From assembly GCA_945903275.1 (NCBI GenBank), contig CAMDNW010000002.1, forward strand, positions 75,829-139,828: a stretch of 64,000 bases of DNA, given 5' to 3'. Position 1 is the stretch's first letter, and the number at the start of each line of letters is the position of its first letter. Origin of the DNA: Thermoflexus hugenholtzii JAD2 (lineage in GTDB: Bacteria > Chloroflexota > Dehalococcoidia > UBA2979). A program made the translations under genes and the position numbers. Shown here piece by piece: positions 2,715 to 47,108 of this stretch. The notes under the pieces are model-generated. The model was not told the DNA's origin. It saw nothing but the letters and a program-made list of their open reading frames with translations, and searched no databases.

Positions 2715-4187
2715 TTACGGCGTCCAGCGCAATACCGGATGGCGAGCCGCCGCCGTCTCGTCGAGCCGCCCGATCGGAGAACTGACCGGGGCGTCATGGA
2801 GCGCCTCGGGATTTGAGGCCGCTTCCCCCGCGATCGCCACCAGCGCAGCCGCGAGCGCCTCGATGGACTCGCGTGACTCGGTCTCCGTCGGTTCGATCAT
2901 CAGAGCCTCCTCGACGATCAGCGGAAAGTAGACCGTGGGCGGGTGGAAGCCGTAGTCGATCAGGCGCTTGGCGATGTCGTAGGTGCGGATGCCGTGCTCG
3001 CGACGTTGGCGGATGCCAGAGTAGACGACCTCGTGCAGCACGGGGCCGCCGTAGGGGAGATCGAAGTGGTCACGGGTGAGCGCCCGGAGGTAATTGGCGT
3101 TCAGTACCGCATGCTCGGAGACGGCGCGAAGGCCATCGAGGCCGAGGGCGCGGATGTAGGCATACGCGCGGAGCAGCACACCCACGTTGCCGTGGAACTG
3201 CTGCATCTGGCCGATGCTGCGATCCGGACGCGTGAGCACGAAGGCACCGTCAGGTTCCTCGACCACCGGGGCGGGGAGGTAGGGGGCGAGGCCGGGCGCG
3301 CAGAGCACGGGGCCAGCGCCGGGGCCGCCGCCGCCATGCGGTGTGCTGAACGACTTGTGCAGGTTGAGATGAATGACATCGAAGCCAAGGTCGCCAAAGC
3401 GCACGCGACCGAGGACGGCATTGAGGTTCGCACCATCACCGTAGAGGTATGCACCTGCCGCATGCACGTGTTGTGCGACCTGCTCGATGTCGCGCTCCCA
3501 GAGGCCGAGCGTGTTCGGCTCGGTGACCATGACCGCGGCGACGGTCTCGTCGAGTTCGCGGTACAGCACCTCGTGATCCATCGAACCGTCGGGTGCGCTC
3601 GGGATCTGGGTGACGGTGAAGCCCGCCATCGCCGCTGTCGCGGGGTTCGTCCCGTGCGCCGAGTCGGGGACGAGGACGCGGCGGCGGGTGGCAAGGTCGC
3701 CGCGCTCATCGAGCGCACGCTTCACCATCAAGATGCCCGCGAGTTCGCCGTGCGCGCCGGCAGCGGGCGCGAGGCTCACCCCGGCCATGCCAGTAATCGC
3801 GCAGAGCGCCGCCTGTAACTCGAAAAGCGTGCGGAGGGTGCCCTGCACGTCCTCGGCCGGTGCGAGCGGGTGCGCCTCGGCCAGCCCGGGCATCGAGGCG
3901 ATCGCCTCGTTCACCTTCGGGTTGTACTTCATGGTGCAGGATCCGAGCGGGTAGGTGCCGGAGTCGATGCCATAGTTTCGTAGCGAGAGCGCTGTGTAGT
4001 AGCGCACGAGACCGGGCTGACTCATCTCCGGTAGGCGAAGCGAGTCGCGCAACAGCCGCACATCCGGGAGATCCGTCTCGCGGCCGGTGAACCGGGGCAC
4101 ATCGACCGCTCGGCGGCCCGGCTCGCTACGGTCGAACGAAAGTCGTGCGCCGAAGTCCTCTGCACCCACCTGTTGTGCGGCGTTCAT
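2715..4187 (-). CDS. gcvPB: glycine dehydrogenase (decarboxylating) subunit 2 (P-protein C-terminal half)
   Basis: PLP-dependent GcvPB blocks CTMKYNP and NLHKSFSTPHGGGGPG are present. ATG 4187 (MNAAQQVG) overlaps the gcvPA stop (ATGA). The six-frame ORF extends artificially upstream to 4397. Confidence 0.9.
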   Translation of the reverse strand: MNAAQQVGAEDFGARLSFDRSEPGRRAVDVPRFTGRETDLPDVRLLRDSLRLPEMSQPGLVRYYTALSLRNYGIDSGTYPLGSCTMKYNPKVNEAIASMPGLAEAHPLAPAEDVQGTLRTLFELQAALCAITGMAGVSLAPAAGAHGELAGILMVKRALDERGDLATRRRVLVPDSAHGTNPATAAMAGFTVTQIPSAPDGSMDHEVLYRELDETVAAVMVTEPNTLGLWERDIEQVAQHVHAAGAYLYGDGANLNAVLGRVRFGDLGFDVIHLNLHKSFSTPHGGGGPGAGPVLCAPGLAPYLPAPVVEEPDGAFVLTRPDRSIGQMQQFHGNVGVLLRAYAYIRALGLDGLRAVSEHAVLNANYLRALTRDHFDLPYGGPVLHEVVYSGIRQRREHGIRTYDIAKRLIDYGFHPPTVYFPLIVEEALMIEPTETESRESIEALAAALVAIAGEAASNPEALHDAPVSSPIGRLDETAAARHPVLRWTP

Positions 4188-5994: not shown

Positions 5995-7122
5995 TTAGCC
6001 GCGGCGCGCTGAGCCGTGCACAAACGGGCGTCTGACGACTTCGGCGGGTTCGATGCGCCCGCGAACGTCCACGGCGAGGGAGATGCCGGGCTTCGCGAGT
6101 ACCGAGGGAAGGTAGGCCATCCCTATAGACGTGCGCAACGAGGGGCTGAACGCGCCGCTGGCGAGGACGCCCACGTCCTCGCCAGCGGCGTCGAGCACCG
6201 CAAAGCCGCTGCGGAATACGCCGCCACGCCCGGTCGCTCTGATACAAGCCAGCCGCAGCGGCGGCGGCTCAGCGGCAAATGTCTCGAGGGCGGGCCGTCC
6301 GGTGAAGGGTGCGCCGTCATCGAGAGTCACGGCGAAGCCGAGGCCGGCGGAGTACGGCTCAGTAGTGGGATCGATGTCGTGACCGTGCAGTGGCAGCGCG
6401 GCTTCAAGCCGGAGGGTGTCGCGCGCACCGAGGCCGACGGGGACCACACCCGCCGCAAGGAGCGCGTCCCAGAAGGCGGGGGCGTATTCGGCGGCGATGA
6501 TGCACTCACCGCCGCCCTCGCCGGTATAGCCGGTGCGGGCGAAGAGCACCGTTGTGCCTCGCCACTCGATTTCGAAGCAACCGCGTGGCGCGATCTCGGC
6601 GCATTGCGGGCCGAGGAGTTTCGCCAACAGCGCGGTGGCCTGTGGCCCCTGCACCGCGAGCATCACCGTCTCGCCGGTGACCTCGCGCGCCATGTCGCCG
6701 CAGGCGGCGGCGAGGCGGACGAAGTCGGCTTCGGCACTCGCTGCGTTATGTGCGATGAGCCAGCATTCCTCAGCGACGCGGTAAACGAAGATATCGTCCT
6801 CGATGCCGCCGCCGGCGTTGCAGTAGAGCGAGTAGTGCGACGACCCGATGGGGATCGTGGTGACATCGAAGGTCGTGACGGAGCGGATGCGGCGGCCAGC
6901 CTCGGGACCGATGGCCCAGGCACGACCGAGATGTGAAACATCGAAGACACCGACGCCTGTGCGGACGGCCTCGTGCTCCGCGACGATGCCCGCGTACTGG
7001 AGGGGCATGTCCCAACCGGCGAACGGGGCGAAGCGTGCGCCAGCGGCGACGTGGCGCTCCGCAAGCGCCAGCCGAAGCAGGCCGTCTTTCGCTGGGTTGG
7101 GAATCCCGTTCAGCACCGCCAC
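5995..7122 (-). CDS. gcvT: aminomethyltransferase (glycine cleavage T protein)
   Basis: FAGWDMPLQY and FDVSHLG GcvT blocks are present. GTG start at 7122, with another GTG at 7116. An in-frame TAG 4 codons upstream blocks further extension. Confidence 0.9.
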   Translation of the reverse strand: MAVLNGIPNPAKDGLLRLALAERHVAAGARFAPFAGWDMPLQYAGIVAEHEAVRTGVGVFDVSHLGRAWAIGPEAGRRIRSVTTFDVTTIPIGSSHYSLYCNAGGGIEDDIFVYRVAEECWLIAHNAASAEADFVRLAAACGDMAREVTGETVMLAVQGPQATALLAKLLGPQCAEIAPRGCFEIEWRGTTVLFARTGYTGEGGGECIIAAEYAPAFWDALLAAGVVPVGLGARDTLRLEAALPLHGHDIDPTTEPYSAGLGFAVTLDDGAPFTGRPALETFAAEPPPLRLACIRATGRGGVFRSGFAVLDAAGEDVGVLASGAFSPSLRTSIGMAYLPSVLAKPGISLAVDVRGRIEPAEVVRRPFVHGSARRG

Positions 7123-10100: not shown

Positions 10101-10829
10101 GTGCGATTCCGCCCCTCGACCGCCGCCGTGCTCGTGCTGCTCACGCTCGCGGTTGTGGTGCTGTGCGCACTCGGCACCTGGCAGGTTTACCGGCTGCTCG
10201 AATCTCGTGAGGCCGACGCGCTCCGCGAGGCTCGCGTCGCCGCCCCGCCGCTGGACTGGGCCGCCGCTCGCGCGCTACCCAACGAGGAGGTCACCTACCG
10301 CATCGTGCGTGTCGCCGGCCGGTGGGATCACGCGCATACGATGCTGATCGCGAACCGTGACCAATACTTCACGCTCGGCCGCGAGGCGGTCACGCCGCTG
10401 CTGCCTGAGGGCGGCGGCCCCGCCATCCTCGTGAATCGCGGCTGGTTCCCGGACGTGCGGCAGGGCGAAGTGCTCGCGGCGCTCGCGACAGAGTCCGGCG
10501 CGACCGTCGAGGGCCTCGCGCGGTACGTCGGGGACGAGTTGTTGCCGGGGCGGCAGTTGCCCTCGGGACAGTGGACGCGCCTCGATCCCGCCGTGATGGG
10601 GCGCGAACTGCCGTACGAGGTGGTTCCGTGGCAACTCACTCAGGGTCGCCGCGAAATCCCCGGCGACGAACGGCAGCCGCCCACTGTGTTCCCGGTGCAG
10701 CGCTACCGGGTCGGCGGATTCACGCCGCCGCATCTCGACTACATCATCACCTGGTATGGCCTCGCAATCGCGCTGGTCGCGACCGCAGTGATTCGGCTGC
10801 GCAAGCGGGCGGCACCGCCGCCAGCCTGA
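10101..10829 (+). CDS. SURF1-family cytochrome oxidase assembly protein
   Basis: N-terminal TM, then GTWQVYRL, and a C-terminal TM with YIITWYGLA, the typical SURF1 topology and motifs. Confidence 0.75.
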   Translation: MRFRPSTAAVLVLLTLAVVVLCALGTWQVYRLLESREADALREARVAAPPLDWAAARALPNEEVTYRIVRVAGRWDHAHTMLIANRDQYFTLGREAVTPLLPEGGGPAILVNRGWFPDVRQGEVLAALATESGATVEGLARYVGDELLPGRQLPSGQWTRLDPAVMGRELPYEVVPWQLTQGRREIPGDERQPPTVFPVQRYRVGGFTPPHLDYIITWYGLAIALVATAVIRLRKRAAPPPA

Positions 10830-10865
10830 GTCGTAACCTCACTCAAACATCAACATTATCCACAT

Positions 10866-10885
10866 CTGTGGATAACCATACGTTC
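10866..10885. promoter_or_regulatory. perfect inverted pair of consensus DnaA boxes (TTATCCACA tc TGTGGATAA)
   Basis: Read directly: 9+2+9 bp palindrome in an AT-rich 78-bp intergenic island between SURF1 and the GDPD gene. Confidence 0.4.
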
Positions 10886-10907
10886 GCGTATTGATAACGT
10901 GACGTAA

Positions 10908-11645
10908 GTAGCCTCGTGTCATGGGAATCAGCGCAGACTCGCTCACGCTTGGAGTCCACCATTCGCAGTTGTCGCTCGTCTCAGCACCGCTCACCACCGC
11001 CCACTGCCGCGGCAATCACCTCGTCTCGCTCACGCCGAGGCTGCGGGTTTCGACATGGTCGAAGCGGACATCTGGCTGCATCGGGGACGGCTGGAACTCC
11101 GGCACAGCAAGACCCTGAGGCTGCTCCCGCTCCGATGCGATGAGTGGACGCTGGAATCAGGACGGCGTCCCTGCCTGACTTTGCCCGCACTGCTGCGCGC
11201 TGCGGCATCTGAGACGACGCTATCGCTCGATCTGAAGGGCCACGAGGCCCGACTGCCCACCGCGGTCATCGAGGCCATGCGGCGGCTCGTGCCGAGCCGG
11301 CCTTATGCAGTTTGCTCACCGTCGCGGGATCTGCTCGAACCGTCCATCGACGAGCCCAAGGTTCGCGTTATCCCTTCGATTGGCTCGAAGTCGATGCTGC
11401 GCGATGTGCGCGCGCGGCTGCGCGACATCACCGATCCCGCAGTTTCAGTGGATATCCGCCTGCTCACGCGACAGCACACGGCATACCTACGAAAGTGCGC
11501 CGCGCTCGTCGTCGGCTGGACGATCAATGACTCCCTCGAGGCGCAGCAAGCGCTGGGATGGGGCGTGAACGGCATCACCAGCGACAATCACGATCTGCTG
11601 CACGGCCTGCTCGCGACACGAGGCGCCGCCACAGCCGCAGCCTGA
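10908..11645 (+). CDS. glycerophosphodiester phosphodiesterase (GDPD) family protein, start uncertain
   Basis: ORF 11055..11645 begins mid-domain. Manual in-frame translation upstream gives ...STAHHRPLP...LAHAEAAGFDMVEADIWLHRGRLELRH, matching the GDPD H-R and E-x-D blocks. The C-terminus VNGITSDN resembles GVDGIITD. The nearest in-frame candidate start is GTG 10908. Confidence 0.55.
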   Translation, partial: VASCHGNQRRLAHAWSPPFAVVARLSTAHHRPLPRQSPRLAHAEAAGFDMVEADIWLHRGRLELRHSKTLRLLPLRCDEWTLESGRRPCLTLPALLRAAASETTLSLDLKGHEARLPTAVIEAMRRLVPSRPYAVCSPSRDLLEPSIDEPKVRVIPSIGSKSMLRDVRARLRDITDPAVSVDIRLLTRQHTAYLRKCAALVVGWTINDSLEAQQALGWGVNGITSDNHDLLHGLLATRGAATAAA

Positions 11646-11722
11646 CCGCCACATCCAGCCACCGCACCGCCGCCCCGTATACTGACTCGCGTTCCCCGCT
11701 AAACCGCGCACTACCGAGGTAG

Positions 11723-12160
11723 ATGAGGAAGGACGCCGCGATGTCCGTGCCCGCCCGCGTGAACCTCGTCACCTTTGGGGTGAGCGATCTCGCCCGCGCC
11801 ACGGCGTTCTACCAGGCGCTCGGTTGGCCGCTCGCGTCGGCATCGGTGGATAGTGAGGTCTCGTTCTTCCGCACCGGGGGCTGCATTGTTGGCCTATGGG
11901 GCCGCGACAACCTCGCAGCCGACGCACACGTCCCCGCGACACATCCACAGCCGTTCGGCAGCACGTCGCTCGCCATCAACGTCGAGTCGTCCGAGGCTGT
12001 TACCGCAGCCCTCGATGCCGCCGTCTCGGCGGGCGCGACGCTGTGCAAAACGGGTGAGGCCACGAACTGGGGCGGCTTCTCCGGTTACTTCGCCGACCTC
12101 GACGGCCACCACTGGGAGGTCGCACACAACCCCTTCTGGCCCCTCGACGCCGAGGGCTAG
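11723..12160 (+). CDS. VOC/glyoxalase-family protein
   Basis: Glyoxalase-like beta-alpha-beta-beta-beta module (LVTFGVSDLARATAFYQALGW...HHWEV). A possible internal start lies at ATG 11741. Confidence 0.7.
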   Translation: MRKDAAMSVPARVNLVTFGVSDLARATAFYQALGWPLASASVDSEVSFFRTGGCIVGLWGRDNLAADAHVPATHPQPFGSTSLAINVESSEAVTAALDAAVSAGATLCKTGEATNWGGFSGYFADLDGHHWEVAHNPFWPLDAEG

Positions 12161-18174: not shown

Positions 18175-18251
18175 GGGCCGTTAGCTCAGTTGGTACGAGC
18201 GCTCGCTTCACACGCGAGAGGTCAGTGGTTCGAGTCCACTACGGCCCACCA
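18175..18251 (+). tRNA. tRNA-Val(CAC)
   Basis: Cloverleaf folded by eye. The 7-bp acceptor GGGCCGU/ACGGCCC pairs. Anticodon loop UUCACAC, T-loop TTCGAGT, encoded CCA. Confidence 0.85.
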
Positions 18252-18310
18252 TGGACGCTCGCGTGAGCAAGGTGTCACGGTCCGCAGCCGGGGCACTGGA
18301 TGATGGCCAC

Positions 18311-18397
<87 letters not shown>

Positions 18398-18445
18398 TTG
18401 TTTCGTATGGTTGAATTGGTCAGGTTGGTCTGTACGCGCTCGTAG

Positions 18446-18521
18446 CTCAGGGGATAGAGCGCAGCCCTGCGGAGGCTGAGGTCGTAGGTTCAAATCCTAC
18501 CGGGCGCACCATTCTTCGTTC
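18446..18521 (+). tRNA. tRNA-Arg with unusual GCG anticodon
   Basis: Acceptor GCGCUCG/CGGGCGC with one G-U pair, D-loop A20, anticodon stem CAGCC/GGCUG, loop CU-GCG-GA with G37, T-loop TTCAAAT, encoded CCA. Anticodon position read directly from the fold. Confidence 0.7.
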
Positions 18522-21262: not shown

Positions 21263-22264
21263 GTGTTCCACTCGCTGTGGGCTATGTACAGTCCACAGGG
21301 GCAAGCGGGCAGCGTCGCAGCATGGCGCAGTGCGGAGCCAACAGCCGTGGAGCAGCGTGTCGAGGCATTCCTCCACTACATGTCCGCCGAGCGCGGCGCA
21401 TCCAAGAACACGATCGATGCGTACCGCAACGACCTCACCCGATTTACCGAATTCACCGCGGAGCACACCGGCAAAGACGGCGCGAGCGCATCCATCGAAA
21501 CGATCAGCCGCGACCTGATCACGAACTACATCCTCTGGCTGCGCAACGGGAACCAGTACGCCGCCGCGACCGTGGCGCGCAAAGTTGCGGCCGTGAAGTC
21601 GTTCTGCGCATTCCTGCTGGATCACGGCGAGATCACCAGCAACCCGACCGCCTCGATTGACTCACCACGCGCGCCGAAGTCGGTGCCGCACCCGATGAGT
21701 ACCACCGATGTCGACTCGCTGCTGCGGGAGCCGACGCGCCACGCCAGCCCCGAAGCGGTGCGCGATGCGGCGATGCTGGAACTCATGTACGCGACAGGGA
21801 TGCGCGTGACGGAACTAGTCTCGCTGAACATGGACAGCTTGCACCTGCCGCCCGGCCCAGCGTACGTCCGCTGCCTGGGCAAGGGTGCGAAGGAGCGCAG
21901 CATCCCCGTCTACGAGCAGGCTGTGGCCGCGGTGGAGACGTACCTCGACCACGCCCGCGCAGCGCTGCTGAAGGATCGCCAGCAGGCCGCGCTGTTCGTA
22001 AACCGGCGGGGCGAGCGGCTGACCCGGCAGGGCTTCTGGCTGATCCTGAAGGGCTACGCCAAGACCGCCGGCATCGACGCGAGCGTAACGCCGCACACAC
22101 TGCGCCATTCGTTCGCCACGCACATGCTGCGCGGCGGCGCGTCCGTGCGCGACGTGCAGGAGTTACTGGGCCACGCCAACGTCTCGACGACGCAGGTGTA
22201 CACGCAGTTGGCCGACGCACACCTCCGCGAGGTGTTTGAGACGGCGCATCCGCGAGCGCACTGA
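21263..22264 (+). CDS. xerD: site-specific tyrosine recombinase, Xer family (XerD-like)
   Basis: Catalytic R, H-x-x-R and Y blocks are present: ATGMRVTEL, HTLRHSFATHML, LLGHANVSTTQVYTQL. Confidence 0.85.
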   Translation: MFHSLWAMYSPQGQAGSVAAWRSAEPTAVEQRVEAFLHYMSAERGASKNTIDAYRNDLTRFTEFTAEHTGKDGASASIETISRDLITNYILWLRNGNQYAAATVARKVAAVKSFCAFLLDHGEITSNPTASIDSPRAPKSVPHPMSTTDVDSLLREPTRHASPEAVRDAAMLELMYATGMRVTELVSLNMDSLHLPPGPAYVRCLGKGAKERSIPVYEQAVAAVETYLDHARAALLKDRQQAALFVNRRGERLTRQGFWLILKGYAKTAGIDASVTPHTLRHSFATHMLRGGASVRDVQELLGHANVSTTQVYTQLADAHLREVFETAHPRAH

Positions 22265-29236: not shown

Positions 29237-29382
29237 CGGCGACGGTCACCACATCGGCGCCCACCGCAACACCGGGGGCGGGGTGATCGGAGGTTTAGGA
29301 AGTTTTATATAGGTTGGGCGCGAATACAGCGACGCCGAGGCATCCTGCCTCGGCGTCGTGGTGTCGGGGCGCGTGCCGGGGT

Positions 29383-46884: not shown

Positions 46885-47108
46885 AGTAATGGAGTACCGC
46901 GTAACCCTCGGGACGCATCCCGAGGGTTACGCGGTAGCGTGCTTCTATACCACTCTCAGAAACGTCAGCGATAAGCATGGGTGCCGTTTGTGACCGCAGA
47001 GGACAGTGACAGCGGGTACCTCGGTGTGGTGTTTGAGACAGGACATCAGTCATGTGTTGCCGTGCGTTGTAGCATGCGCGGCAACACATGACTGATGTGG
47101 AGGTCGCC

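Follow-up and report, generated by a model that had tools for sequence, protein, structure and literature searches.

Introduction

Experiments in E. coli, B. subtilis, Streptomyces and mycobacteria have established that dnaA is autoregulated through DnaA boxes in its own promoter (PMC8203912). The core of the E. coli DARS elements contains boxes I and II, which are placed 5 bp apart, and box III, which stands in tandem with box II (PMC6868365). In B. subtilis, stable binding of DnaA in vivo was observed only at dense clusters of boxes (PMC2533591).

Here, we describe a perfect head-to-head pair of DnaA boxes in a 64-kb stretch of DNA (hereafter the window), which comes from an uncultured member of the Chloroflexota, of Dehalococcoidia type according to its closest named homologues. 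All named homologues of its enolase at 73-82% identity, as well as the closest named SURF1 homologues, carry Chloroflexota or Dehalococcoidia labels. The palindrome formed by the two boxes is probably a former operator or a weak sink for DnaA.

Identification of the box pair

The sequence TTATCCACATCTGTGGATAA is present as a single copy in the window, at positions 10856-10875, and consists of two DnaA boxes arranged head to head on either side of the 2-bp spacer TC (TTATCCACA-TC-TGTGGATAA, a 9-2-9 palindrome). The left box (10856-10864) is read on the plus strand and the right box (10867-10875; TGTGGATAA on the plus strand, with G at 10868) on the minus strand, and both arms are exact, with zero mismatches to the DnaA-box 9-mer TTATCCACA or to its degenerate form TTWTNCACA. 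The initial annotation had recognised this perfect inverted pair, which is indeed present, but had placed it at 10866-10885; the true position lies ten bases to the left. Judged by sequence, the arms are DnaA boxes of the high-affinity type, and DnaA of this organism would be expected to bind them. The genome of another member of the Chloroflexota (L024) carries seven exact TTATCCACA boxes within 1 kb, which suggests that this consensus is used in the phylum; a different DnaA-box consensus in this organism appears unlikely.

The palindrome is far beyond chance. According to a first-order Markov model of the window, exact boxes are expected at 0.084 per 64 kb and palindromes at about 2e-6 per 5 Mb, and allowing one mismatch raises the latter expectation of the same model only to about 2e-4 per 5 Mb. 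The degenerate 9-mer TTWTNCACA was observed three times in the window (0.59 expected), and two of these three occurrences are the palindrome arms themselves. The nearest box with one mismatch is found 1.8 kb from the palindrome. A further box, TTGATAACG, had been proposed a short distance downstream, and this proposal is not sustained, because a count from the sequence gives five mismatches to the DnaA box. The weak box-like 9-mer that overlaps it (TTATCAATA, 10889-10897, minus strand) has two mismatches, and sites of this quality occur across the window at chance frequency (70 found, 61 +/- 7 expected), so that it is probably no real box either.

Genomic context

The palindrome is located in the intergenic gap at 10830-10920, between a SURF1-family gene on the plus strand (10101-10829), whose stop codon is separated from the palindrome by 26 bp, and the ATG at 10921. 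This gap had been described as an AT-rich island in a GC-rich background; it is AT-rich, and by our measurement it is 91 bp long with 44% GC, compared with 65.8% GC for the whole window. The distance from the end of the palindrome to ATG 10921 is 46 bp, which falls inside the range of palindrome-to-dnaA-frame distances in other phyla (mostly 13-85 bp); this geometry would suit an operator. An operator for a minus-strand gene was considered and rejected, because both flanking genes are on the plus strand.

No sigma-70-type promoter was found by a consensus scan of 10700-11200, a type from which the promoters of this lineage may differ. The scan for promoters and terminators returned the palindrome itself as the sole terminator-like match, on the minus strand, where no gene ends. 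The Rfam scan of the whole window yielded five tRNAs only and no match at the palindrome. Neither terminal repeats nor mobile-element genes were seen flanking the palindrome.

Within 24 kb, the 17 largest ORFs all have functions in metabolism or repair. The genes in this range encode lipoamide dehydrogenase, lipoyl synthase, LipB, the glycine-cleavage proteins P, H, and T, a methyltransferase, an esterase, a Band_7 protein, SURF1, the GDPD-like protein, a glyoxalase, PepN, aconitase, tRNAs, UvrC, a Xer-type recombinase, and enolase. A search of the six-frame translation of the 64-kb window with a DnaA HMM gave no match, in agreement with the earlier statement that no dnaA is nearby. A cluster of three tRNA genes is located near UvrC (18175-18508), and the gene of the Xer-type tyrosine recombinase follows UvrC (21263-22264). 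Elsewhere in the window there are three perfect GC-rich inverted repeats (46895-46936, 6153-6190, and 29330-29358, with arms of 19, 17, and 13 nt, respectively, and loops of 3-4 nt), which are probably terminators or other hairpins.

A frameshifted GDPD-like gene downstream

The gene downstream of the gap encodes a protein whose homologues are rare (10 among 5.8 billion proteins) and which has weak GDPD signatures. It is divided into an N-terminal part (10921-11028, plus strand; MGISADS...TAHCRGNHLV), which is out of frame with the remainder, and a C-terminal part (11025-11645, plus strand), of which the called ORF covers only 11055-11645 (196 aa). According to the alignment of homologues, the conserved N-terminal motif AH(K/R)GGNHL is encoded in the frame of ATG 10921, and the remainder of the protein, beginning with LAHAEAAGFDMVEADIW, is read in a frame shifted by one. 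The frameshift, which is located near 11023-11030 and looks like a 1-nt deletion, is the reason why gene callers report only the 196-aa ORF from ATG 11055, which is devoid of the conserved AH.GGNHL motif; it also explains the unclear start that the initial annotation had pointed out for this gene.

Across the GDPD-like region, six independent assemblies match the window at 100% identity, the frameshift is shared by the assemblies of three sister strains, and it is fixed in all nine of the nine assemblies examined. Since it recurs in independent assemblies and in sister strains, it is a genuine mutation that has become fixed, not an artefact of assembly, and as read from these assemblies the GDPD-like gene is inactivated. 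A near-perfect 10-bp tandem repeat (CACCGCTCAC/CACCGCCCAC, 10985-11004) lies just upstream of the frameshift and puts an 'AH' dipeptide in two frames, which makes the assignment of the N-terminal frame ambiguous, and a tblastn search with P0002, which together with P0003 and P0004 makes up the three closest intact GDPD-like homologues, gave an alignment in one frame from 10956 onward. Two compensating frameshifts, one in the repeat at 10985-11004 and the other being the 1-nt deletion, were considered and rejected, because the 10956 frame contains no start codon before 11055 and the ATG 10921 frame has both a start and a better AH.(R/G)GNHL motif. A programmed -1 frameshift was also rejected, as no slippery heptamer in the correct phase was found on reading the sequence.

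The substitutions between the strain groups suggest relaxed constraint on this gene, with the proviso that the SNP numbers are small: three synonymous and eight non-synonymous SNPs were counted in the GDPD-like part, compared with 5/3 (synonymous/non-synonymous) in SURF1, 5/3 in Band_7, and 8/6 in the esterase gene. In the glyoxalase gene (11741-12160), all six SNPs relative to sister strain L175 are non-synonymous and five of them fall at first codon positions; this pattern is odd for a gene with a clear Pfam match, and the numbers are again small.

Comparison with sister strains and relatives

In the three sister strains (L175, L176, and L177; 98-99% identical to the window; NCBI, ENA, and Logan assemblies), the right arm of the palindrome reads TATGGATAA. 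The G at 10868 of the window is replaced by A in all three independent assemblies, which hits a consensus position and turns the box into TTATCCATA, so that the sister allele of the whole palindrome is TTATCCACATCTATGGATAA. Only two SNPs distinguish the gap (10830-10920) from that of the sister strains, at 10868 and 10919, and no sign of purifying selection on the palindrome was seen at this locus. We infer that the perfect palindrome is probably the ancestral form and the sister allele a product of decay, because a random change in the gap has a chance of about 20% of falling on any of the 18 specified bases, whereas a gain from 17 of 18 needs one particular change.

The palindrome and the GDPD-like gene together form an 833-bp block (10834-11666) that is absent from a sibling species (L182). 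The alignment of this relative to the window, at 90.5%, runs up to window position 10833 and resumes at 11667 (junction at L182:1097-1099), and its SURF1 gene is followed directly by the glyoxalase promoter-like motif, there in the form CCCCGTATACTG. In the window this motif, CCCCGTATACTGACT (11673-11687, plus strand), marks the right edge of the variable block; it holds a -10-like hexamer, TATACT, and precedes the glyoxalase gene by 35-60 bp. It is kept in two more distant relatives, L170 (~3805-3820) and L173 (~3790-3805), down to 56% SURF1 identity, and is present with one substitution at L182:~1105-1120, directly after SURF1; it is probably the promoter of the glyoxalase gene.

The order of genes after SURF1 varies accordingly among the relatives. 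It is GDPD-like, glyoxalase, PepN in the window; glyoxalase, PepN in L170, L173, and L182; GDPD-like, PepN in L178 and in the P0003 contig; and in L180 an unrelated lipoprotein-like gene follows. In L170 and L173 (56-58% SURF1 identity), SURF1 leads straight to the glyoxalase gene without any box. L178, which is the nearest relative with an intact GDPD-like gene (68% SURF1 identity), has no DnaA box in its 122-bp upstream gap. Likewise, perfect boxes and pairs of boxes are missing from the 500 bp upstream of all 43 distant metagenomic GDPD-like loci; two of the 43 have a single box with one mismatch about 290-350 bp upstream. By these comparisons, the palindrome is restricted to one species-level lineage and varies within that lineage. 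When the gaps of the window and L178 are compared by eye, TCGTAAC and TTGATA.ACG.GAC are shared and might bracket an insertion; the MAFFT alignment of the two was uninformative.

Occurrence of the palindrome in other genomes

The query TTATCCACANNTGTGGATAA was scanned against one genome per bacterial or archaeal species and returned at least 120 loci, compared with about nine matches expected in 596 Gb of uniform composition by our own arithmetic. A DnaA profile was built from the retrieved loci and run on 120 slices of at most 8 kb, which detected dnaA within the slice in 66 of the 120 loci listed, and at these dnaA-linked loci the palindrome is nearly always no more than 320 bp upstream of the dnaA open frame. 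According to a Pfam census of the loci listed, the genes whose 5' end faces the palindrome include DnaA (48/128) and rnpA (18/128), as well as NrdD, the small subunit of ribonucleotide reductase, and GidA. The gene rnpA, which encodes the RNase P protein, is the usual divergent neighbour of dnaA. The lineages represented among the loci listed include Rokubacteria, Binatia, Methylomirabilota, Nitrospirota, Rhodococcus, Clostridia, Selenomonadales, Elusimicrobia, Synergistota, and Bacillus.

Since more than half of the 20-mers listed stand directly upstream of dnaA, they are to be read as DnaA boxes and not as the half-sites of another dimeric regulator. The linkage of 66 of the 120 listed copies to dnaA thus upholds the initial assignment of the arms as DnaA boxes and counts against the alternative offered with it, an operator for another dimeric regulator with the same half-site. 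On the evidence of these loci, the exact 20-mer is a genuine DnaA operator that is widely used across phyla.

At many of these loci the palindrome is accompanied by a third box, which was scored as a match to TGTGGATAA with three or fewer mismatches on the dnaA-proximal side. Such a box was found at 57 of the 68 dnaA-linked palindromes listed, and in 47 of these the gap is exactly 3 bp, which results in the layout 9-2-9-3-9 (TTATCCACA-NN-TGTGGATAA-NNN-TGTGnnTAA) in very diverse phyla (L009, L018, L026, L027, L034, L070, L075, L093, L112, and about 50 other loci). On the distal side a third box is far rarer (16/68 of the dnaA-linked palindromes). A shallow literature search turned up no description of the 9-2-9-3-9 layout upstream of dnaA. 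At the palindrome of the window no third box was found with gaps of 1-5 bp, the best match having seven mismatches on the right and five on the left, and its flanks show no similarity to the dnaA-upstream regions listed, which argues that the window copy was not simply copied from a dnaA promoter.

About 15 of the 120 loci listed are isolated palindromes away from dnaA. These stand before mraW/rsmH in two Nitrospira (L069:4194, L114:6143) and before an AAA_22 ATPase gene in two Binatia (L012:3893, L060:2730). One case each was seen before the gene of a ribonucleotide reductase small subunit and before a plasmid gene for a Rep3 initiator (L042:1996, Saprospiraceae; L081:953, Cytophagales), and among the annotated loci others precede aminopeptidase P and an epimerase. 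The gene mraW/rsmH is the first gene of the division cluster. The copies before mraW/rsmH, AAA_22, ribonucleotide reductase, and Rep3 are candidate members of lineage-specific DnaA regulons, and as isolated copies before genes other than dnaA, some of them conserved between species, they provide a precedent for the use of this operator outside dnaA. In Acidaminococcus fermentans (L054), three 9-2-9 palindromes (at 1396, 1815, and 2752) and many boxes were observed within 1.4 kb upstream of dnaA; this box-rich region is probably oriC.

Interpretation of the palindrome

The explanation that we favour, and hold with moderate confidence, is that the palindrome is a lineage-specific orphan high-affinity DnaA site, an operator in decay that is under little or no selection and is not an origin. 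The palindrome would have arisen in one lineage of uncultured Dehalococcoidia-type Chloroflexota. At high DnaA levels each box of the pair would carry a DnaA molecule, and the bound pair may then impede RNA polymerase in or close to the GDPD-like promoter, or stop transcription that runs on from SURF1, which would be a repressive or roadblock effect; as a side effect, a couple of DnaA molecules would be soaked up. The GDPD-like gene is now frameshifted, and little or no selection appears to act on the palindrome. In view of the cluster requirement reported for B. subtilis, a palindrome of two boxes may be occupied only transiently.

The functional importance of the palindrome is probably low. 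The initial annotation had preferred a DnaA-titrating site or a DnaA-regulated promoter, and a role of this kind with current importance does not agree with the missing sigma-70-type promoter, the frameshifted gene, and the relaxed substitutions. A currently important DnaA locus is equally hard to reconcile with an arm that is mutated in sister strains, a segment that is absent from a relative of about 90% identity, and the lack of any box at the intact L178 orthologue.

The same comparisons bear on the reading that we place second after a decaying orphan operator, namely that the palindrome is a relic or incidental copy that was taken either from a foreign replicon or from the dnaA promoter or oriC of this organism, or that came about with the AT-rich insertion, and that was never selected here; DnaA would then bind it only incidentally. 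This is fairly unlikely in our judgement, yet a good part of the data is compatible with it: the palindrome is missing from the intergenic regions of L178, L170, L173, and L182, is polymorphic within the species, sits in a dispensable 833-bp block, and lies in a gap whose SNP density (2 in 91 bp) resembles that of neighbouring neutral-looking DNA. However, a copy of this origin would be expected to bring along flanks similar to the listed dnaA-upstream regions and the canonical third box, neither of which is present, there are no terminal repeats or mobile-element genes alongside, and a perfect 18/18 match is hard to generate or maintain without selection. A further reading is that of an important DnaA-control locus, which would titrate DnaA or, in the manner of DARS, change its nucleotide state by means of a head-to-head DnaA dimer; E. 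coli DARS depends on two boxes of opposite orientation (PMC6868365). Both boxes are of the highest-affinity type, and DnaA titration by the chromosome is experimentally supported in E. coli (PMC12371093); nevertheless, we consider this improbable, because neither the mutation seen in sister strains nor the loss from a sibling species would be expected of an important control locus, while titration by two boxes would be negligible compared with clusters, and the DARS core comprises three boxes, with I and II 5 bp apart, whereas the window has a 2-bp spacer and no credible third box. Another reading, in which the palindrome is a lineage-specific DnaA control point, either as a minimal two-box DARS-like element or by coupling a phospholipid-headgroup (GDPD-like) enzyme to the replication cycle, has in our estimate a very small chance of being right; if it were true, the strains would differ functionally through the G/A polymorphism at 10868.

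A role in initiation is the least probable of all. The earlier judgement that the site is unlikely to be oriC is confirmed by the presence of two boxes only, the absence of dnaA and of a DNA unwinding element (DUE), and a neighbourhood of housekeeping metabolism. No box cluster surrounds the two exact boxes, no repeated AT-rich 13-mers or trinucleotide arrays were seen on reading the 91-bp gap, and the GC skew does not switch at 10.8 kb, the cumulative skew having a shallow minimum near 20 kb; lacking dnaA, a cluster of boxes and an unwinding element in its vicinity, the palindrome is not oriC. A secondary or cryptic origin would make use of the high-affinity boxes and the locally AT-rich stretch, but it is extremely improbable, given that there are two boxes without dnaA, AT-rich repeats or an unwinding element, a moderately AT-rich stretch (44% GC) of no more than some 90 bp, no skew switch at the palindrome, and no such block in sibling species L182. 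Two further explanations dispense with DnaA. Perfect palindromes with 9-bp arms are typical of dimeric regulators, and this one lies in an intergenic 5' region, so an operator of a different dimeric transcription factor that shares the half-site may be imagined; this is very doubtful, however, since the identical 20-mer tracks dnaA across genomes and no regulator gene adjoins it (the neighbours being SURF1, GDPD-like, glyoxalase, PepN, Band_7, esterase, and methyltransferase). The palindrome could also act as an RNA hairpin that terminates or stabilises the SURF1 transcript at its 3' end, where, 26 nt past the SURF1 stop codon, the RNA would fold into a stem of 8 bp closed by a 4-nt loop (-10.5 kcal/mol). 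We regard this as highly improbable too, because there is no U-tract on the plus strand and the terminator-like call is on the minus strand only, the stem is AT-rich and weak and even weaker in the sister allele (-7.1 kcal/mol), and the exact match to the DnaA consensus would be left unexplained.

Taken alone, a decaying orphan operator of this kind matters little, being another pair of DnaA boxes outside an origin and before a decaying gene. It does serve as a caution that a consensus site that is impossible by chance can still be evolutionarily transient. Of wider interest is the 20-mer itself, which, usually with a third box 3 bp off, fronts dnaA in very diverse phyla, and the orphan copies of which recur before mraW/rsmH, ribonucleotide reductase, and AAA_22 ATPase genes in particular lineages.

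Comparison with known DnaA sites

A possible likeness to the E. coli DARS1/DARS2 core (PMC6868365) is that the palindrome of the window has two oppositely oriented boxes, which would hold two facing DnaA molecules, but its spacer is 2 bp instead of 5 bp and it has no box III. With datA and the DnaA-box clusters of B. subtilis it shares high-affinity boxes away from oriC; those sites are dense clusters of four or more boxes, whereas the window has two. The non-origin DnaA regulon, such as the nrd genes and the B. subtilis sites (PMC8203912, PMC2533591), offers a parallel in that boxes are placed 5' of a gene unrelated to initiation. Unlike the site in the window, which stands before a GDPD-like gene with a frameshift and differs between strains of the species, the sites of that regulon are conserved between species or precede genes relevant to the cell cycle. 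In the dnaA-promoter operators, the identical 9-2-9 head-to-head pair is found a few tens of bp before the start codon, as it is here, while the downstream gene in the window is GDPD-like and not dnaA, and the site has no third box and is not conserved between relatives. Orphan use of the 9-2-9 palindrome already has known examples.
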